Shown piece by piece: positions 24,334 to 36,125 of a DNA stretch of 64,000 nucleotides (positions are counted from its first letter, which is position 1; each line of letters begins with the position of its first letter). This DNA comes from Escherichia coli (lineage in GTDB: Bacteria > Pseudomonadota > Gammaproteobacteria > Enterobacterales > Enterobacteriaceae): NCBI RefSeq assembly GCF_009931435.1, contig NZ_CP043414.1; one strand, written 5' to 3'. The translations under genes were made by a program, and so were the position numbers. The notes below the pieces were generated by a model. It did not search any database. It was not told where the DNA came from and saw nothing but the letters and a program-made list of their open reading frames with translations.

Positions 24334-26763
24334 TCATGAATACTTTTTCGTCCGTCGCGTCGGTGCGGTATTTGCCGGATCATCCGGCCAGACGTGTTTG
24401 GGATAACGCCCTTTCATCTCTTTTTGCACCTCGCGATACGCACCTTTCCAGAAGGCGCTCAAATCTCGTGTGATTTGCAGCGGCCTTTGGGCAGGAGAAA
24501 GCAACTCCAGCACCAGCGGCACACGCCCCTGGGCGATCGTCGGATTGGTGGCCTCGCCAAACATCTCCTGCATTCTCACCGCCAGCGCGGGCGGGTTATC
24601 TTCATGGTAACGAATGGCGATCCGGCTCCCCGTCGGCACAGTGTAATGCGCAGGCAATTCACTATCCAGACGTTGCTGCATCCCCCAATCAAGTAATCCG
24701 CGTAGCGCCTGATAAATATCGAGTGATTTCAGGCCGCGTAGCGAATGTACGCCTGCCATATGCGGCAGTAGCCACGTTTCCAGCGTCGCCAACAAACTTG
24801 CATCATCAACCGCTGGCCAGTCATATTCCGGCAACCACTTTGCGGCGCATAACAAACGCAAGCGTAGCTGTTCCGCTTCCGCCGTCCAGTTGAGCACGCT
24901 TAAACCTTTATCACGAATGCCGTTAAGCATTGCCTGATGCAACTCGTCTTCCGAGGGTTTCGCCAGCGGCTGCACTTTCACCGTCAACTGACCGATTTGC
25001 AGCCGACGCCACGCTTTCAGCGTACCTTGCGCATCATCCCACTCCACAGTGTCAGACTGCTGTACCAACTGCGGACAGCGTTGTACTAATTCATCGATAT
25101 CGACCGGTAGCGCCAGTAAAATCCGCGCATCCGGCGAGGCGCTGCCCTGCAATAATAACGGTGCGATCAACCATTCGTGGCGGCTTAGCGCATCGTCGGC
25201 ATCGAGCATTGCCCCCATGCCGTTTGCCAGTTGATAGCGTCCATCTTGCCCACGGCGACGAGCAATGCGATCGGCATACGCCCCGGCAAGTAGCGGCGCG
25301 ATAAGAGAACTGTCTGCCTCACCGCCGCGTACGTTTAAACGTTTTAACAGTTGCTGGCTACGTTGCTGCCAGGCAGGTTGATTGCGCGAAAACGCCACAT
25401 CCAGATCGATATTGCCCATCCGTGGTGGCTCTTCGAGAATAGCGGCAATTTTTGCAGCGGTAGCAGCTTCGTCGTCGCTCCTTGCGCTCACCAGCATTGC
25501 CGCTAAACGCGGATCGTTACCCAGCGTCGCCATTTTCTGCCCTTTCGTGCTTAGCCGTTCACCGTCCATCGCCCCCAGCATCCGTAACAGGCGTTTCGCG
25601 GCCTGTAAATTCACGGCTGGCGGTTGATCCAGCCAGCTCATCTGCGTCGGATCGCTGCATCCCCATTGCAGTAATTCCATCAGCAAACCGGAGAGATCGC
25701 TTTGTAAGATTTCCGGTTCACTTTGCGCGGAGGCGCGTTCTGCTTGTTCTTTGGCGATTAAATGTAAACAGATCCCCGGCTCCAGACGTCCGGCACGCCC
25801 GGCGCGTTGCGTCATTGATGCCTGGCTAATGCGTTGGGTAATCAGCCGCGTTAGCCCCGTGCGCGGATCAAAGCGCGCCACACGTTCCTGAGCACAATCC
25901 ACCACCAGACGAATACCTTCGATGGTTAAACTGGTTTCAGCAATATTGGTTGCCAGCACCACTTTGCGCATCCCTTCTGGTGCCGGAAGGATCGCTTTTC
26001 GCTGATCGTTCAGCGACAACGCGCCATACAGCGGGCAGAGCAACACATCACTACCGATGCGCGAAGCTAGTTGTTCCTGAACGCGCTGAATTTCTCCGAC
26101 ACCAGGTAAAAATAACAGTAATGAGCCGCTTTCCTGATGCAGCAATTCGGCGGTGGCAACCGCCACGGCTTCATCAAAACGCTGATGAGCGAGCAGCGGT
26201 AAATATCGGCGTTCAACCGGAAATGAGCGCCCTTCTGAGATGACGACGGGCGCTTCTGGCAGCATCTGCTGCAAGCGGTCATTGTCCAGCGTAGCCGACA
26301 TAATCAGTAGTTTAAGGTCATCACGCAGACCTTGTTGCACATCGAGTAACAGCGCCAACGCCAGATCCGCCTGCAAGCTGCGCTCATGAAACTCATCGAG
26401 GATCACCAATCCAACGCCGCTCAGTTCAGGGTCACGCTGGATCATGCGCGTCAACACGCCTTCGGTAACTACTTCCAGGCGAGTATTTGGCCCGACACAG
26501 TTTTGCGCGCGCATCCGGTAGCCTACCGTATCACCTGTTTTTTCGTTAAGCAGTTCCGCCAGTCGTTGCGCAACGTTACGCGCCGCCAGGCGACGCGGCT
26601 CCAGCAGGATAATTTTTCCGTTAATGCCGGGATGCGCCAGCAGTTGCAGCGGCAGCCAGGTTGATTTCCCGGCCCCGGTCGGCGCACTTAATAACACCTG
26701 CGGTGCACCATCGAGGGCAGCAAGTAACTCAGGTAAGACGGCGGCAACGGGCAACGACGACAC
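24334..26763 (-). CDS. hrpB: ATP-dependent RNA helicase HrpB (DEAH-box)
   Basis: ORF 24334..26808; start placed at the GTG at 26763 (VSSLPVAAV, 809 aa); motifs GAGKST and DEFH. Confidence 0.9.
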   Translation of the reverse strand: MSSLPVAAVLPELLAALDGAPQVLLSAPTGAGKSTWLPLQLLAHPGINGKIILLEPRRLAARNVAQRLAELLNEKTGDTVGYRMRAQNCVGPNTRLEVVTEGVLTRMIQRDPELSGVGLVILDEFHERSLQADLALALLLDVQQGLRDDLKLLIMSATLDNDRLQQMLPEAPVVISEGRSFPVERRYLPLLAHQRFDEAVAVATAELLHQESGSLLLFLPGVGEIQRVQEQLASRIGSDVLLCPLYGALSLNDQRKAILPAPEGMRKVVLATNIAETSLTIEGIRLVVDCAQERVARFDPRTGLTRLITQRISQASMTQRAGRAGRLEPGICLHLIAKEQAERASAQSEPEILQSDLSGLLMELLQWGCSDPTQMSWLDQPPAVNLQAAKRLLRMLGAMDGERLSTKGQKMATLGNDPRLAAMLVSARSDDEAATAAKIAAILEEPPRMGNIDLDVAFSRNQPAWQQRSQQLLKRLNVRGGEADSSLIAPLLAGAYADRIARRRGQDGRYQLANGMGAMLDADDALSRHEWLIAPLLLQGSASPDARILLALPVDIDELVQRCPQLVQQSDTVEWDDAQGTLKAWRRLQIGQLTVKVQPLAKPSEDELHQAMLNGIRDKGLSVLNWTAEAEQLRLRLLCAAKWLPEYDWPAVDDASLLATLETWLLPHMAGVHSLRGLKSLDIYQALRGLLDWGMQQRLDSELPAHYTVPTGSRIAIRYHEDNPPALAVRMQEMFGEATNPTIAQGRVPLVLELLSPAQRPLQITRDLSAFWKGAYREVQKEMKGRYPKHVWPDDPANTAPTRRTKKYS

Positions 26764-28776: not shown

Positions 28777-29682
28777 TTCAACGAGATGACAGACACACAC
28801 TATATTGGCCGCTTTGCCCCCTCTCCTTCCGGCGAGCTTCATTTTGGCTCTCTGATTGCCGCGCTTGGAAGCTTTCTACAGGCTCGCGCCCGGCAAGGTC
28901 GCTGGCTTGTTCGCATTGAAGATATCGATCCGCCTCGTGAAGTTCCCGGTGCCGCAGAGACCATCCTGCGCCAGCTGGAACATTACGGTTTACACTGGGA
29001 CGGCGATGTTCTCTGGCAATCGCAACGTCACAACGCCTATCGCGAAGCACTCGCATGGTTACATGAGCAAGGGTTAAGTTATTACTGCACCTGCACGCGC
29101 GCACGTATTCAAAGCATTGGCGGTATTTACGACGGTCATTGCCGGGAGTTGCATCATGGGCCAGAAAACGCTGCTGTACGTATTCGCCAGCAGCATCCGG
29201 TCACCCAGTTTACTGACCAGCTGCGCGGCATTATTCATGCCGACCAAAAACTGGCGCGGGAAGATTTTATTATTCATCGTCGTGATGGTCTATTTGCCTA
29301 TAACCTGGCGGTGGTCGTTGACGATCACTACCAGGGCGTGACAGAAATTGTTCGTGGCGCGGATTTGATCGAACCCACGGTGCGCCAAATCTCGCTGTAC
29401 CAGCTTTTTGGCTGGCAGGTGCCAGATTACATTCATTTGCCACTGGCACTTAATCCACAAGGCGCTAAACTTTCCAAGCAGAATCATGCGCCTGCGTTGC
29501 CAAAAGGCGATCCTCGGCCGGTGTTAATCGCGGCACTTCAATTTCTGGGCCAGCAGGCAGAAACACACTGGCAGGATTTCAGCGTCGCGCAAATTCTCCA
29601 GTCAGCCGTCAAAAACTGGCGGCTCACCGCAGTGCCTGAGTCGGCAATTGTAAATTCAACATTCTCAAATGCGTCATGCTGA
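28756..29682 (+). CDS. gluQ: glutamyl-Q tRNA(Asp) synthetase
   Basis: 308-aa ORF from the ATG at 28756, which lies inside the dksA terminator; alternative in-frame ATG at 28786 (MTDTHY); class I aaRS HIGH-like motif ([10 protein letters not shown]). Confidence 0.85.
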
Positions 29683-29741
29683 GCTATGATTAGCCGCTAT
29701 TTTTTTGTCCTGAATGATGTTTGACACTACCGAGGTGTACT

Positions 29742-31139
29742 ATTTTTACCCGAGTCGCTAATTTTTGCCGCAAGGTGCTAAGCCGCGAGGAAAGCGAGGC
29801 TGAACAGGCAGTCGCCCGTCCACAGGTGACGGTGATCCCGCGTGAGCAGCATGCTATTTCCCGCAAAGATATCAGTGAAAATGCCCTGAAGGTAATGTAC
29901 AGGCTCAATAAAGCGGGATACGAAGCCTGGCTGGTTGGCGGCGGCGTGCGCGACCTGTTACTTGGCAAAAAGCCGAAAGATTTTGACGTGACTACTAACG
30001 CCACGCCAGAGCAAGTGCGCAAACTGTTCCGTAACTGCCGCCTGGTGGGTCGCCGTTTCCGTCTGGCTCATGTGATGTTTGGCCCGGAGATTATCGAAGT
30101 TGCGACCTTCCGGGGACATCACGAAGGTAACGTCAGCGACCGTACGACCTCCCAACGCGGGCAAAACGGCATGTTGCTGCGCGACAACATTTTCGGTTCC
30201 ATCGAAGAAGACGCCCAGCGCCGCGATTTCACTATTAATAGTCTGTATTACAGCGTGGCAGATTTTACCGTCCGTGATTACGTTGGCGGCATGAAGGATC
30301 TGAAGGACGGCGTTATCCGTCTGATTGGTAACCCGGAAACGCGCTACCGTGAAGATCCGGTACGTATGCTGCGCGCGGTTCGTTTTGCCGCCAAATTGGG
30401 CATGCGCATCAGCCCGGAAACCGCAGAACCGATCCCACGCCTGGCTACCCTGCTGAACGATATTCCTCCTGCACGCCTGTTTGAAGAATCGCTTAAACTG
30501 CTACAAGCGGGCTACGGTTACGAAACCTATAAACTGTTGTGTGAATACCATCTGTTCCAGCCGCTGTTCCCGACCATTACCCGCTACTTTACGGAAAATG
30601 GTGACAGTCCAATGGAGCGGATCATTGAGCAGGTGCTGAAGAATACTGACACGCGTATTCATAACGATATGCGCGTCAACCCGGCGTTCCTGTTTGCCGC
30701 CATGTTCTGGTATCCCCTGCTGGAAACAGCACAGAAAATCGCGCAAGAGAGCGGCCTGACTTATCACGACGCTTTCGCGCTGGCAATGAACGATGTGTTA
30801 GACGAAGCCTGCCGTTCACTGGCGATCCCGAAACGGCTAACCACTTTAACGCGTGATATCTGGCAGTTACAGTTGCGCATGTCCCGCCGTCAGGGTAAAC
30901 GCGCATGGAAATTACTCGAACATCCGAAGTTCCGTGCCGCTTATGACCTGCTGGCACTGCGTGCTGAAGTAGAACGCAACGCCGAGCTACAACGTCTGGC
31001 GAAATGGTGGGGTGAGTTCCAGGTTTCCGCGCCGCCGGACCAAAAAGGGATGCTTAACGAACTGGATGAAGAACCGTCACCGCGTCGTCGTACTCGTCGC
31101 CCGCGCAGACGTGCGCCGCGCCGTGAGGGCACCGCATGA
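29742..31139 (+). CDS. pcnB: poly(A) polymerase I
   Basis: ORF track opens at the TTG at 29721; no ATG near the 5' end; start placed at the ATT codon at 29742 (IFTRVANF), as reported for E. coli pcnB; nucleotidyltransferase GGGVRD motif. Confidence 0.85.
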
Positions 31140-31612
31140 CAGTGGCGTATATTGCTATCGGCAGCAATCTGGCCTCTCCGCTGGAGCAGGTCAATGCTGC
31201 CCTGAAGGCAATAGATGACATTCCTGAAAGCCGCATTCTTGCCGTTTCTTCGTTTTACCGCACCCCACCACTGGGGCCGCAAGATCAACCCGATTACTTA
31301 AACGCAGCCGTGGCGCTGGAAACCTCTCTTACAGCTGAAGAACTCCTCAACCACACACAGCGTATTGAGTTGCAGCAAGGTCGCGTCCGCAAAGCTGAAC
31401 GCTGGGGACCGCGCACGCTCGATCTTGATATCATGTTGTTTGGTAATCAGGTCATAAACACTGAGCGCCTGACCGTTCCGCACTATGATATGAAGAATCG
31501 TGGATTTATGTTGTGGCCGCTGTTTGAGATCGCGCCGGAACTGGTGTTTCCTGATGGTGAAACGCTGCAAGCAAGACTCACTACTTTCCCTCCCTGCCCA
31601 CAGCACTGGTAA
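31136..31612 (+). CDS. folK: 2-amino-4-hydroxy-6-hydroxymethyldihydropteridine pyrophosphokinase
   Basis: 158-aa ORF recognised as HPPK; start overlaps the pcnB stop (ATGA). Confidence 0.93.
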
Positions 31613-32115
31613 ACCACATTTCTGGAAAAGCGTATTGGGTAATGCAATGTTGTATAATATTATTTTATAGTTTCAATGAATTAATTCTCTCTCCCCCATC
31701 ATAAAAATCACAAAAAAACAGCATTAAACATATAATTACGGCAAATATATTTTCATTACCTATATTAACTTTTCTCTTTATAAGAGGTTTTTAATGATAA
31801 TGAACCAGTTTATTCTGGGTACTATGCCTCACTCCCGGTATTAGCACTGGATAGCGCTTAACTGGATTCTGTCAGGCTGGGACGGGGCAACAAGAGCATA
31901 CAACGACCAGTCCTTAACGCGTGATTATTAATTTCTACAGCGTATCATCATATTATTTAAATCTGCCCAACCTCACCAAATACATTCATAAAATGCATAA
32001 TGATAATAAATCATAAAATACATTCACCGAAGATATTTCTCTTTAAAGAGCGTGACATTTATAATAAGTATTGGTGAGAAAAATCACCCCCATTAATTTT
32101 TATAAGGATATTCCC

Positions 32116-32685
32116 ATGTTAAAAAAAAGTGCTATTGCTGCGGCATTAGTGATGTTCACCACTTCTGCTTTCGCGCTGGATGGCGGTCAATTAGATTTCG
32201 CGGGTTTGGTGAGTGACAACACTTGCGTCTTGCACGTCAACGGTGGCGCCCAGGACGGTCAGATTACCCTGCAAACCGCCACAACCACTGAAGTTAATCA
32301 GGCCGGTGTTGTCCAACTTGCCAGCCCTGGCGCAAAACCGGAAGCCTTCTCTATTACGATCGATTGCTCGGACGATCCACAGGGCGCCTCTGCCAATCTG
32401 AGCATGGGTTCCGTGTTCTTCAGCAACAGTCAGGGCACTCTGAACAACGATCTCTCCATTAGCCAGGCGGCTACCGGGGTCGCGATTGCCATTCACTACC
32501 TTACCGATGCCACTACCTACGAACAGATGAGAGTGAACGACAGCACTGATGTTAAAAACCTGCTGTTTACCAACGGCAAAGCGGTTTACAACTTTAAAGC
32601 GTCATATGTAAAACAGGCAGCAACAGTTAACGCAACGGCAGGTTATGTCAAAACCAACGCCGCTTATACAGTGACTTACCAGTAA
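32116..32685 (+). CDS. yadN: fimbrial major subunit, YadN family
   Basis: ORF 32071..32685; start placed at MLKKSAIAAALVMFTTSAFA (signal peptide); C-terminal ...YTVTYQ donor-strand motif; first gene of the operon next to folK; appears to be a divergent allele. Confidence 0.8.
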   Translation: MLKKSAIAAALVMFTTSAFALDGGQLDFAGLVSDNTCVLHVNGGAQDGQITLQTATTTEVNQAGVVQLASPGAKPEAFSITIDCSDDPQGASANLSMGSVFFSNSQGTLNNDLSISQAATGVAIAIHYLTDATTYEQMRVNDSTDVKNLLFTNGKAVYNFKASYVKQAATVNATAGYVKTNAAYTVTYQ

Positions 32686-32742
32686 ATATCTGCATCACCC
32701 GACAGCCCACGGGCTGTTGGGTCACTCAATAAGGATAGTGTT

Positions 32743-33486
32743 ATGACCAGGATGTGTCAGTTTATTGTTTCCACTGCTTTCGTCGCATCGACAGCCGTTT
32801 TCAGCCTCACCGCGCAAGCAGATATTGTGCTTTCCGGTACGCGCATTATTTATAATGCCGACCAGAAAGACGTCACATTGCGCATGGAAAACAAAGGTGC
32901 CCGCCCACTATTAGTTCAGACCTGGATTGATACCGGCAGCGAAAATGCCGACCCCAGCACACTGAAAGTGCCTTTTACCGTGACGCCGCCGGTTTCCCGC
33001 GTTGATGGTAAAAAAGGCCAAACGGTTAAAATTGCCTGGAGCGCCAGCCAGACCCTTCCAGCCGATCGCGAAAGCGTTTATTGGTTCAATGCGCTGGAAG
33101 TTCCCCCCAAGATGAACGATGCCGATGCCAAGGGAAAAAACATTCTGCAATTGGCTTTCCGTACCCGTATCAAGCTGTTCTATCGCCCAACCGGCCTGGC
33201 GGGTAACCCGGCTGATGCACCAAAACAGTTAACCTGGCGTCTCCAGTCTTCAGCCGGAAAAGTGGTGTTGCAGGCAACAAACCCAACGCCTTATCACGTC
33301 TCATTCAGCAGTATTACCCTTGCCTCAGGCGGTAATAAATATACCGTGGAAAGCAGTATGGTCGAGCCCAAAAGCAGTGCGGAAATGGTGGTAAAAGGCG
33401 CTCCCCGTTCTGTGTCTGGCGCAACAGTTGAGTACTCAGCCATTAATGATTTTGGCGGTGGCATTGACGGCAAAGTCAAACTTTGA
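32743..33486 (+). CDS. ecpD: PapD-like periplasmic fimbrial chaperone
   Basis: 247-aa ORF with signal peptide and chaperone N-domain sequence (DIVLSGTRIIY...LLVQTWID); symbol by synteny (yadV/ecpD). Confidence 0.8.
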   Translation: MTRMCQFIVSTAFVASTAVFSLTAQADIVLSGTRIIYNADQKDVTLRMENKGARPLLVQTWIDTGSENADPSTLKVPFTVTPPVSRVDGKKGQTVKIAWSASQTLPADRESVYWFNALEVPPKMNDADAKGKNILQLAFRTRIKLFYRPTGLAGNPADAPKQLTWRLQSSAGKVVLQATNPTPYHVSFSSITLASGGNKYTVESSMVEPKSSAEMVVKGAPRSVSGATVEYSAINDFGGGIDGKVKL

Positions 33487-33518
33487 TGCCCACAGACGAG
33501 ATCGGCTGAGATCGTACA

Positions 33519-36125
33519 ATGAAGATCCCCCACGATGGCAAAAGAATTCAACGATCGCCGCTCGCTTGCCTGATTGCGTGTAGCCTGCTGCCCTGCACAC
33601 AAAATGTGTGGGGGGCAAACGAGACCGTTGAGTTTGATAACACGTTCCTGATGGGCGCAGGTGCCAGAGATATTGATGTCAATCGTTACAGCAAAGGTAA
33701 CGCAACATTGCCGGGGCGCTATGACGTCAGCGTGTTTATTAATAACCAGGCCAGCGCCAATCTGAAAATCGAGTTTATTGAATTAGACCCTGAACACGCT
33801 GCTCAGCCCTGTATCTCCACCAACACATTATTACAACTGCATATTCGCCAGCCAGAAAAGTTAGCGGATAACGCAATTTTGCAAAAACGCGAAAATGCTG
33901 CGCAGGATTGCCTGAACGTAGAGGTTGCTATTCCGCAATCGAGCGTCGCTTACAATAGCAACGATCAGCGGCTTGATATCAGCATGCCGCAAATCTGGCT
34001 GCAGAGAACCTATGCCAACTATGTCGATCCGTCGCTGTGGGATGAAGGCATCAATGCCGCAATGCTCTCTTACACCCTTAACGGCTGGCGCAGTGAATCC
34101 CCCAATCAAACCACAGAAACCAGCTACGCCGGACTGATGGGCGGTATCAATTTATGGGGATGGCATTTTCGCTCACATGGTAACTATTCGTGGGACAAAG
34201 AAGACGGCGGCAGTTTTGAATTTCAGGATAAATATCTGCAACGCGATATCGCCGCGCTCCGCTCTCAGCTGGTAATGGGTGAAACCAATACCACAGGAGA
34301 AACCTTCGACTCGGTGCCTATTCGCGGGCTGCGACTCTATAGCGAAAGCCGCATGTTGCCCCCTACGCTGGCGTCGTATGCGCCTGTTATCCGTGGCGTG
34401 GCAAACTCTAACGCGAAAGTCACGATCACCCAAAACGGTTATAAAATTTATGAAACGACCGTGCCGCCTGGTCCATTCGCGATTGACGATCTCACGCCGG
34501 CAGGGTTCGGCGCCGATCTCGAGGTGACCATCACCGAATCGGACGGTTCAAAACGTACGTTTAGTCAGGCTTATTCATCGGTGATCCAGATGATGCGTCC
34601 CGGCGTGGGCAAATGGGATATCAGCGCCGGTGAGGTCAATAAAGCGGAACTCCAGGATAAACCTAACCTGCTGCAAGGTACCTACTATTACGGGTTGAGT
34701 AACACCTTCACCGGCTACACCGGCCTGCAAATGACCGATAACGGTTACTGGGCCGGTTTATTAGGGGTGGGCATGAATACATCGCTGGGCGCTTTCTCCT
34801 TCGATGTTACTCAGTCTCATGCCGAAATTCCTGACGATAAAACCTATAGTGGACAGAGTTACCGTGTTTCATGGAACAAATATTTCGCCCCGACCGAAAC
34901 CTCACTCAACATTGCCGCCTATCGCTACTCCACTGAAAACTATCTGGGGCTGAACGACGCGTTAACGCTGATTAATTCTGCCAACCATCCTGATGAAGAA
35001 GGCTATTCGGGGATTGTCAGTTATGCACGCATGAAAAATCAGTTCAGCGTTAGCATTAATCAAACGTTAAAAAGTGATGAACGTGACTATGGCTCTTTCT
35101 ATGTGAATGGCACATGGACAGATTACTGGGTAACCAACGAATCACAGAGCAGTTTTGCCTTTGGCTACAGCAATGCCTTTAACTGGGCGAGCTACAGCGT
35201 CAGCCTGCAACGGACATACGATGAAGACAATAAGAAGGATGACTCGATTTATCTGAGTGTGACCATTCCGCTTGATAAACTGCTTGGCCGCGATAGCCAT
35301 CAGGGCGGGTTCAAAACCCTGAACACCAGCGTTAACAGCGACATGAAAGGGAGCTCACAATTTAACGCCAATGCCTCGGGCTACAGCCAGGATAATCGCT
35401 GGAGTTACAGCGTGAATACCGCCTATAACGTGCAGAAAAACAGCGACAGCCTGAAAAGTATCAGCGGTTATACCAGCTATGAGTCGCCGTGGGGAACATT
35501 TTCAGGCTCAGCCTCCACCAGCAGCGATCGCTCACGTCAGTATGGGCTCAGCACCGATGGCGGTTTTGTACTCCACCGCCACGGTCTGACCTTCAGTAAC
35601 GACAGTTTTACCGACTCTGACACGTTGGCGCTGATCAACGCCCCGGGTGCAAAAGGCGCGCGCATTAACTTTGGTAACAGCACCATCGACCGTTTTGGCT
35701 ACGGCGTGACCAGTTCACTGTCACCGTACCGGGAAAATACCGTCGCGCTCGATGTTAACGATCTGGATAACGACGTGGAGCTCAAAAACACCAGTAGCGT
35801 CGCCATTCCGCGCCAGGGTTCCGTCATTTTCAGCCACTTTGACACCGATACCGGGCGCTCCGCCATTCTCAATTTACTGCGTAGCAACAATCAGCCCGTG
35901 CCGTTTGCTTCCGATATTACCGACGAAAAAGGGACCTCTATCGGGACCGTCGGTCAGGGCAGTCAGGCATTTGTACGCGGCATTGCCGACAGCGGTGAAC
36001 TGACGGTCACCTGGTATGAGAAAAATAGTCGCCAGCAGTGCCGTATTCATTATCAGATACCGTCATCACCCACCATGACCGGTAAAACCATCGTACTCAA
36101 CGGCGTGCCATGCACCCAGCAATAA
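33519..36125 (+). CDS. htrE: fimbrial outer-membrane usher
   Basis: 868-aa ORF, size and sequence typical of FimD/PapC ushers; symbol by synteny. Confidence 0.85.
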   Translation: MKIPHDGKRIQRSPLACLIACSLLPCTQNVWGANETVEFDNTFLMGAGARDIDVNRYSKGNATLPGRYDVSVFINNQASANLKIEFIELDPEHAAQPCISTNTLLQLHIRQPEKLADNAILQKRENAAQDCLNVEVAIPQSSVAYNSNDQRLDISMPQIWLQRTYANYVDPSLWDEGINAAMLSYTLNGWRSESPNQTTETSYAGLMGGINLWGWHFRSHGNYSWDKEDGGSFEFQDKYLQRDIAALRSQLVMGETNTTGETFDSVPIRGLRLYSESRMLPPTLASYAPVIRGVANSNAKVTITQNGYKIYETTVPPGPFAIDDLTPAGFGADLEVTITESDGSKRTFSQAYSSVIQMMRPGVGKWDISAGEVNKAELQDKPNLLQGTYYYGLSNTFTGYTGLQMTDNGYWAGLLGVGMNTSLGAFSFDVTQSHAEIPDDKTYSGQSYRVSWNKYFAPTETSLNIAAYRYSTENYLGLNDALTLINSANHPDEEGYSGIVSYARMKNQFSVSINQTLKSDERDYGSFYVNGTWTDYWVTNESQSSFAFGYSNAFNWASYSVSLQRTYDEDNKKDDSIYLSVTIPLDKLLGRDSHQGGFKTLNTSVNSDMKGSSQFNANASGYSQDNRWSYSVNTAYNVQKNSDSLKSISGYTSYESPWGTFSGSASTSSDRSRQYGLSTDGGFVLHRHGLTFSNDSFTDSDTLALINAPGAKGARINFGNSTIDRFGYGVTSSLSPYRENTVALDVNDLDNDVELKNTSSVAIPRQGSVIFSHFDTDTGRSAILNLLRSNNQPVPFASDITDEKGTSIGTVGQGSQAFVRGIADSGELTVTWYEKNSRQQCRIHYQIPSSPTMTGKTIVLNGVPCTQQ

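Follow-up and report, generated by a model that had tools for sequence, protein, structure and literature searches.

The 64,000-nucleotide stretch of Escherichia coli DNA analysed here (contig NZ_CP043414.1, hereafter called the window) carries a long spacer between folK and a fimbrial operon, and the question raised by this locus is whether the spacer is a regulatory device such as a switch or whether its length, composition, repeats and small ORF have another origin. The first-pass annotation was right in placing a long spacer upstream of a fimbrial operon: the 3' end of folK is at 31612 and the fimbrial ATG at 32116, which leaves 503 bp between folK and a divergent yad-type operon. The locus is laid out as follows.

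31136 to 31612, plus strand: folK (HPPK), a housekeeping gene according to the ORF list and the RefSeq annotation, whose stop codon is the left end of the spacer.
31613 to 32115, plus strand: the spacer, 503 bp with 33% GC, a composite of several parts.
32116 to 32685, plus strand: the gene of a yadN-like major fimbrial subunit, the first gene of a seven-gene operon.

The RefSeq annotation was taken from an E. coli genome that is identical across a 651-bp query (window 31550-32200) and in which the same two flanking genes are annotated. To one side of the spacer lie folK, pcnB and gluQ, and to the other the pilin, chaperone and usher genes. Besides the major subunit, the operon encodes four more subunits, a chaperone and an usher, and it ends before panB; its position and layout, from folK to panB, are those of the E. 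coli yad operon as annotated in the identical E. coli genome and in K-12, and the genes called in the fetched related loci gave Pfam Fimbrial, PapD and Usher matches. The yadN-like subunit shares 53% amino-acid identity with K-12 YadN and 88% with a protein of Pseudocitrobacter vendiensis, the subunit's nearest relative in a scan of species-representative genomes, and the structural genes of the window are 93.6% identical to those of P. vendiensis at the nucleotide level. The allele is carried by 14 of 5426 complete E. coli genomes, all of them matching the query with at least 94.5% identity, and an E. albertii contig is collinear with it at 95.7%. The spacer is probably the composite regulatory region of this divergent yad-type chaperone-usher operon, with the fossil of a second subunit gene, A1, and a conserved proximal promoter. 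It is an ordinary allele, so far uncharacterised, of a kind of region that is already known, and its relic and conserved footprint are useful and unsurprising.

The spacer had also been described as strongly AT-rich. This holds for the whole, as its GC content is 33% compared to 52% for the window and no 503-bp stretch in all 64 kb has a lower one. However, the AT-richness is not uniform, since an island with 49% GC (31794-31894) lies between two AT-rich blocks, 31613-31793 with 26% GC and 31951-32115 with 28% GC.

The sequence comparisons establish that the distal part of the spacer (~31707-31894) is what remains, as a fossil, of A1, a second major-subunit gene that stood upstream of the present one, and that the spacer is made up of the former folK-A1 intergenic region, the A1 fossil and the former A1-A2 intergenic region, where A2 is the yadN-like gene. 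The length of the spacer, its GC-rich island and its 16-codon ORF are thus all due to the presence of the A1 relic between two former intergenic regions. The distal features are given below.

31710 to 31894, plus strand: the A1 fossil, comprising promoter, TTTCATTAC box, Shine-Dalgarno sequence, start codon and signal-peptide/early mature region, in which 10 nt are deleted, the frame is shifted and an in-frame stop occurs.
31707 to 31736, plus strand: the relic A1 promoter, ATCACA, an 18-nt spacer and TATAAT.
31794 to 31844, plus strand: the 16-codon ORF MIMNQFILGTMPHSRY, the decayed 5' end of A1, whose ATG is aligned with the A1 start.

In a first comparison by blastn and tblastx, the window resembled the start of A1 from 31770 to 31892. 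A nhmmer profile was built from four Pseudocitrobacter-type A1 regions, from -120 to +200 (P. vendiensis, P. corydidari and the metagenome contigs L005 and L006), and gave only two matches in the whole 64-kb window, one at the start of A2 (E=1e-44) and the other at 31710-31894 (E=1.3e-12). In the latter alignment the A1 -10 region pairs with CATATAAT at 31729-31736, the TATCATTAC box with TTTCATTAC, the A1 Shine-Dalgarno sequence with ATAAGAGG and the A1 start codon with the ATG at 31794. Further along this alignment, a 10-nt deletion in the signal-peptide region shifts the frame, which then runs into a stop (YASLPVLALDSA*LD versus FASLPALALDGGQLD by tblastx and tblastn). Local alignment of the relic gave z-scores of 7-8 against shuffles, and A1 genes fitted it better than A2 genes. 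The region thus has the marks of a fimbrial major-subunit pseudogene: it is collinear with, and significantly homologous to, a gene that is intact at this site in relatives, it has disabling mutations, and synteny is kept. What is left of A1 is a promoter-like region, a Shine-Dalgarno sequence, a start codon and ~100 nt of signal-peptide coding sequence, the remainder of the gene having been deleted. A global alignment of the spacer with the whole folK-A2 interval of P. vendiensis was noisy in the AT-rich DNA and did not fix the right-hand deletion junction.

The relic promoter ATCACA-18-TATAAT scores 10/12 and was the sole sigma-70-like site on the plus strand found by a simple promoter scan. 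It overlaps the nhmmer match and is aligned with TTTACA...TATAA(A/C) upstream of the intact A1 genes, and 31707-31736 is the promoter-like relic of the lost gene. The 16-codon ORF, which the first-pass annotation had placed near 31784, does exist at 31794-31844 and is preceded by a Shine-Dalgarno sequence (AAGAGG at 31782-31787, 6 nt ahead of the ATG), but it is the fossil start of A1 and not a gene. Among six spacer alleles that are 94-99.6% identical (the window, four other E. coli strains and E. albertii), the ORF shows four non-synonymous changes (M3T, M3I, G9S and Y16H) versus one synonymous change, a pattern unlike that of a conserved peptide.

For the proximal part of the spacer, an alignment was made of 14 loci from at least six genera, each represented by the 110-200 bp that precede its chaperone-proximal subunit gene. 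The loci were the window, E. albertii, a third E. coli allele (LHM10-1), K-12, three Pseudocitrobacter species, [Enterobacter] lignolyticus, Salmonella, Citrobacter, Kluyvera and the contigs L005, L011 and L012. The alignment consists of separate conserved blocks amid drifting AT-rich DNA, and the blocks of the proximal ~140 bp are common to the 13 other loci, as expected of the upstream region of a yad-type operon. We infer that these ~140 bp (31976-32115) are the promoter region of the yadN-like gene, with a -10 element at 32060-32065 and a transcription start near G32073. A promoter at this position fits the finding that ~200 bp upstream of yadN are sufficient for H-NS-repressible promoter activity in CFT073 (PMC13245861). 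The elements of the region are listed in their order on the DNA.

31983 to 31988, plus strand: the distal CATTCA box, conserved in the 14-locus alignment and the core of the first copy of an 11-nt direct repeat.
31983 to 31998, plus strand: a palindrome and candidate operator, ATTCA (31984-31988) and TGCAT (31994-31998).
32021 to 32026, plus strand: the proximal CATTCA box, the core of the second copy of the 11-nt repeat, ~-52 to -47 from the predicted transcription start.
32034 to 32040, plus strand: a conserved TATTT(C/T)T block, overlapping the -35 region.
32058 to 32065, plus strand: TTTATAAT, the predicted -10 region of the yadN-like gene, with TATAAT at 32060-32065.
32073 to 32088, plus strand: the hairpin or palindrome GGTGA-GAAAAA-TCACC, 6-7 nt after the -10 and at or near the predicted mRNA 5' end.
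32103 to 32118, plus strand: the Shine-Dalgarno sequence TAAGGAT (32103-32109) and the ATG (32116), where ATAAGGA(T/C)ATT is near-invariant.

TTTATAAT is near-invariant across 13-14 loci and is located 44-60 nt upstream of the ATG; the simple promoter scan missed the -10 at 32060-32065 because of its poor -35. ATAAGGATATT is conserved immediately upstream of the yadN-like ATG. The two CATTCA boxes are 38-39 bp apart in the Escherichia, Pseudocitrobacter, [Enterobacter] lignolyticus and L012 loci. The TGCAT of the window is TGAAT in most loci, which gives the palindrome ATTCA-N5-TGAAT, and 9-10 of its 10 positions are retained in 10 of the 14 loci, as read by eye from the alignment rows. Among the close alleles the substitution density is flat over the sub-blocks (0.06-0.10) and gives no sign, at such depth, of added constraint on the promoter. 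A metagenome scan for the pattern TTTATAATN{33,52}ATAAGGAYATT yielded 120 stretches, none of which encoded a yadN-like relative by tblastn, the pattern being too unspecific in AT-rich DNA.

According to the mechanism that we propose, the palindrome ATTCA-N5-TG(C/A)AT and the second CATTCA box would be candidate regulator sites, and some factor would act at these CATTCA/TGAAT boxes. An AT-rich -35 region and the TTTATAAT -10 would follow, and transcription would start near G32073. None of the consensus sequences of CRP, Fur, NsrR, RcsB, OmpR, TorR, SlyA, Cra and KdgR is known to match the conserved positions of the boxes, and no regulator is named here. Tentatively, the palindrome and the second CATTCA box may form a regulator operator common to the yad-type operons of Escherichia, Pseudocitrobacter, Salmonella, Citrobacter, Kluyvera and [Enterobacter] lignolyticus, and the hairpin might add post-transcriptional control; jointly they might be the input by which a host cue counteracts H-NS at yad promoters. 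We consider this reading possible, though less probable than not. The cross-genus footprint, made of the two CATTCA boxes, the palindrome and the 5' hairpin, provides specific bases to mutate in order to find the factor that relieves repression by H-NS.

The comparison is suggestive of an RNA hairpin at the mRNA 5' end. A stem-loop was folded at this position in 10-11 of 13 loci, with stems of 5-7 bp and free energies of -4.4 to -9.3 kcal/mol (-5.8 kcal/mol for the window), whereas the Citrobacter and Kluyvera loci showed no hairpin at the corresponding position. In the MAFFT alignment 82% of the stem cells are paired, compared to 36-52% in slid controls, and the covariation score was reached by 13 of 500 shuffles. 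The stem of P. vendiensis, GATGA/TCATC, is changed on both sides with pairing kept, which amounts to one full G-C to A-U compensatory pair in a single locus. Elsewhere the stems of L011 and P. vendiensis contain G-U pairs, [E.] lignolyticus has a longer and different stem, Salmonella has GUCA/UGAC, and the loops vary freely, that of L012 being 4 nt long. As RNAalifold gave no consensus structure on the 13-locus alignment, the suggestion is based on per-sequence folds and pair counts only. The transcript would start with this short stem-loop (GGUGA/UCACC), which probably protects the mRNA 5' end, and a strong Shine-Dalgarno sequence would come next; mRNA stabilisation is the most likely role of the hairpin. 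Such 5'-terminal hairpins protect the mRNA 5' end in ompA, and stem-loops of the ompA type reportedly stabilise mRNAs, as Emory, Bouvet and Belasco are said to have found in 1992. Like them, the hairpin of the window is short, is placed at the predicted 5' end and is conserved in position while its loop drifts, but its stem has only 5-7 bp and its 5'-terminal position depends on the placement of the -10.

The repeats reported in the first-pass annotation can be set against these conserved elements. The 11-mer AAATACATTCA is indeed present twice in direct orientation, at 31978-31988 and, one position before the 32017 noted at first, at 32016-32026. By dinucleotide shuffling of the spacer, which served as the chance test for repeats, it is at chance level: exact direct repeats of at least 11 nt occurred in 10% of the shuffles, and the best ungapped direct-repeat score of the spacer was reached by 19% of them. 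The exact 11-mer is lost in sister alleles, in which the second copy reads AAATCCATTCA (RMDEC465, N96 and MFDS) or AAATCTATTCA (E. albertii) and the CATTCA cores of both copies are retained. The imperfect inverted repeat is likewise present, as CTCACCAAATAC at 31972-31983 and GTATTGGTGAG at 32068-32078, which are complementary except for a 1-nt indel and are separated by 84 bp. Yet repeats of equal quality occurred in 100% of the shuffles, and the best inverted repeat of the spacer is below the shuffle mean. Its left arm is listed here for completeness.

31972 to 31983, no strand assigned: the left arm CTCACCAAATAC of the inverted repeat, at chance level and with no sign of function.

The CTCACC of this arm was not found outside the window allele or in other genera, and the right arm GTATTGGTGAG is the 5' half of the local conserved hairpin plus four flanking bases, one of which carries a mutation in strains N96 and MFDS. 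Both the exact 11-mer direct repeat and the inverted repeat of 12/11 nt are thus incidental; the parts of them that belong to conserved elements are the CATTCA cores and the GGTGAG half of the hairpin alone. The suggestion that the repeats are regulator-binding sites therefore survives for the CATTCA cores, which are located in blocks conserved across genera, and not for the 11-mer as such.

Invertible promoters are classic in fimbrial operons, the model being the fimS element of type 1 fimbriae, which is 314 bp long and, like the present arrangement, has a promoter between inverted repeats upstream of the major pilin gene. In the small invertible switch that had been suggested for this spacer, the arms at 31972-31983 and 32068-32078 would recombine, the 84-bp interior with the -10 would flip and turn the operon on and off, and an inverted subpopulation would carry the junction CTCACCAA(A)TAC-TTATTATAAATGTCAC, also given as CTCACCAA(A)TACTTATTATAAATGTC. 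The arms exist and enclose the predicted promoter. However, they are of a quality found in every shuffle and differ by an indel; the left one is not conserved in other genera, and the right one is mutated in N96 and MFDS and belongs to the conserved hairpin. No recombinase gene was found between mrcB and rpnC, and the 84-bp interior is far shorter than the 314 bp of fimS. The comparison of orientations across strains, run on assemblies, showed that 14 of 14 complete E. coli genomes and the fetched E. albertii contig align in one piece and in a single orientation. The features of a fimS-like element, namely conserved flanking repeats, an adjacent recombinase gene and the occurrence of both orientations among the 14 genomes and the E. 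albertii contig, are all lacking, and the switch is very improbable, as is the existence of an inverted subpopulation with the above junction. Many fimbrial operons use a mechanism of the pap type instead, an epigenetic switch that depends on Lrp and on Dam methylation at two GATC sites spaced ~100 bp. The 503-bp spacer contains no GATC, a pap-type Dam/Lrp switch is therefore ruled out, with a probability next to nil, and no papI- or papB-like genes adjoin the operon. Invertible promoters and pap-like switches in fimbrial operons are both discussed in PMC13245861, and the same paper describes Yad fimbriae as not phase-variable, which also speaks against inversion. The relic calls for caution against taking small ORFs or repeats in such spacers for regulatory devices.

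Two further alternatives concern the transcript. As the proximal -35 is poor and the scan called the relic promoter only (ATCACA-18-TATAAT, 10/12), the latter could still contribute a long structured leader: transcription would start at ~31743, the 16-codon ORF, with its good AAGAGG Shine-Dalgarno sequence 6 nt before the ATG, would be translated as a regulatory uORF, and the ~370-nt leader would control the yadN-like gene. The spacer is also more similar to that of E. albertii (95.7%) than are folK (93.5%) and pcnB (92.3%), but recombination mosaicism explains this equally well. The 4:1 excess of non-synonymous changes and the demonstrably frameshifted pilin signal peptide argue against a translated leader ORF, a Rfam scan of 29000-35000 at E<=1 gave no covariance-model match, and other genera retain the proximal promoter blocks without the distal sequence; altogether a long leader seems quite unlikely. 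Somewhat less unlikely, but still doubtful, is that GGTGA-N6-TCACC does not act as an RNA hairpin but as a DNA operator at which a dimeric regulator would repress just downstream of the -10. It is a perfect palindrome, its two halves are 6 bp apart in 8 of the 13 aligned loci, and the sequence between them varies freely, as is typical for operators; it also contains GTGA-N6-TCAC, which matches the CRP consensus core. On the other hand, the GATGA/TCATC of P. vendiensis changes both half-sites and destroys the CRP core with pairing kept, the spacer of L012 has only 4 nt, the stems of L011, P. vendiensis and [E.] lignolyticus either contain G-U pairs or are longer and different, and that of Salmonella is GUCA/UGAC. 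These changes suit a structure better than a fixed protein site and thus argue against a CRP-type operator.

With the proximal promoter as the preferred start of the operon, its control may be compared to that of known yad operons. In extraintestinal pathogenic E. coli, Yad fimbriae are colonisation factors that are induced by serum and repressed by H-NS (PMC13245861), and the yad promoters of both K-12 and CFT073 are repressed by H-NS (PMC13245861, PMC5797941). In K-12, yadN is bound by H-NS, and its expression is raised by overproduction of SlyA or BolA (PMC5797941, PMC4337573). The spacer has the AT-richness of an H-NS target, with 33% GC versus 52%, while the high-affinity H-NS motif TCGATAAATT is not enriched in it, a single match with two mismatches being present. 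It is plausible that H-NS silences the promoter of the spacer; the two AT-rich blocks would be bound by H-NS, and the operon would be silent until counter-silenced. The locus resembles the K-12 and CFT073 yadN operon (yadN-ecpD-htrE-yadMLKC) in its site between folK and panB, in its operon layout and in having an AT-rich upstream region. It differs from K-12 in the length of the spacer (503 bp versus 369 bp) and in the subunit, which is 53% identical, and only weak traces of the boxes can be aligned. As the alignment of the spacer with the K-12 yadN upstream region is otherwise essentially random, H-NS control of the window operon is an extrapolation.

Another related arrangement is that of the two-subunit loci. 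A1 is intact (190-191 aa) in P. vendiensis, P. corydidari and two metagenome contigs, and yad-type loci of Salmonella, Citrobacter and Kluyvera also have it intact. The loci L003, L005, L006 and L007 have the order folK, ~500 bp, A1, ~200 bp, A2 (yadN-like), chaperone and usher. This succession of folK, spacer, A1, spacer, A2, chaperone and usher is that of the Pseudocitrobacter (L003, L005-L007) and Citrobacter loci. Tandem subunit genes also lead the yad-type loci of Salmonella, Citrobacter and Kluyvera (L013-L015), although the gene calls upstream of them comprise pcnB alone in the Salmonella locus, and the Kluyvera contig begins with A1. These two-subunit loci have the A2-proximal promoter blocks in common with the window, whereas A1 is reduced to a ~185-bp fossil in the latter, which also lacks the stem-loop located after A1 in the Pseudocitrobacter loci. 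No intact A1 was found in the complete E. coli genomes, in which an A1 query matches only the single yadN-like gene, at ~70%, and at E<1 no relic of A1 was found in the K-12 spacer. In contrast, the spacer of [Enterobacter] lignolyticus, 702 bp long, contains a separate relic, that of the A1 C-terminus, ~210 bp upstream of A2. A1 has therefore been lost more than once; yad-type loci formerly had tandem major-subunit genes, one of which was lost repeatedly, and this loss is a general reason for the long spacers at the yad-type locus.

The fimbrial structural genes that start with the yadN-like, chaperone-proximal pilin gene (A2) share 93.6% nucleotide identity with those of Pseudocitrobacter vendiensis (window 32093-35683 versus locus L003, 2978-6564), whereas the adjoining pcnB/folK region is only 80.6% identical (window 29888-31569 versus L003 1-1685). 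The block of high identity begins 23 bp upstream of the pilin ATG. Comparison of Escherichia albertii with the window gave the opposite pattern, with 95.7% identity in the spacer and 83-87% in the pilin, chaperone and usher genes. The alignments suggest a mosaic history, in which genera have exchanged fimbrial genes and the Shine-Dalgarno region marks a recombination breakpoint.

The housekeeping genes of the window (hrpB, 24334-26763, and the segment 28870-31568) are only ~93% identical to those of K-12, and the same value was found for 5357 of the 5424 complete E. coli genomes. The top match among these genomes reached 98.8%, and 67 genomes fell in the 95-99% band. From these identities, the source of the window seems to be a divergent Escherichia lineage filed as E. 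coli. A third yad allele of E. coli, carried by LHM10-1 and 8 other genomes, is ~76% identical in nucleotide sequence to the window operon; in its spacer of 404 bp (L004 3618-4021) the proximal boxes are retained, together with a hairpin of 7 bp.

Tandem subunit genes and a stem-loop were found in the yad-type loci of other genera:
L013 1501-3131 (Salmonella), two tandem major-subunit-like genes
L014 1501-3133 (Citrobacter), two tandem major-subunit-like genes
L015 466-2085 (Kluyvera), two tandem major-subunit-like genes
L003 2817-2846 (P. vendiensis), perfect G+C-rich stem-loop GTTGCACGGCAC-AGAAT-CGTGCCGTGCAAC, 3' of the stop codon of A1, the extra upstream pilin gene

The tandem genes are separated by ~445-460 bp, and a conserved, -35-like TGAATTTTACA block lies upstream of the first gene. 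The stem-loop recurs at the equivalent positions of the Pseudocitrobacter-type loci L005 and L007, with a stem sequence that differs by species, and is absent from the window. It resembles a terminator or stabiliser placed between cistrons, behind a major-subunit gene. The folK-pilin spacer of [Enterobacter] lignolyticus (702 bp, L010 799-1500) contains a fossil of an A1-like pilin C-terminal strand (PLTTRFVKTDTTYTLAH, ~1238-1288); the pilin gene that survives lies ~210 bp downstream of it. In this species the upstream subunit gene was lost independently.

The spacer of the window also contains a repeat of two copies, which agree at 14 of 16 positions:
31792-31807, TAATGATAAT(G/A)AA(C/T)CA, across the start codon of the A1 relic
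31998-32013, TAATGATAAT(G/A)AA(C/T)CA, between the conserved boxes

Its core, ATAATGATAAT, resembles a Fur box, but was not conserved in other genera in the alignment of yad-type loci; the repeat is probably due to chance in AT-rich DNA. Within the relic, a G run (31879-31888) is polymorphic in length, reading GGGACGGGG in the window and in strain R32, and GGGACGGGGG in the remaining 4 alleles.
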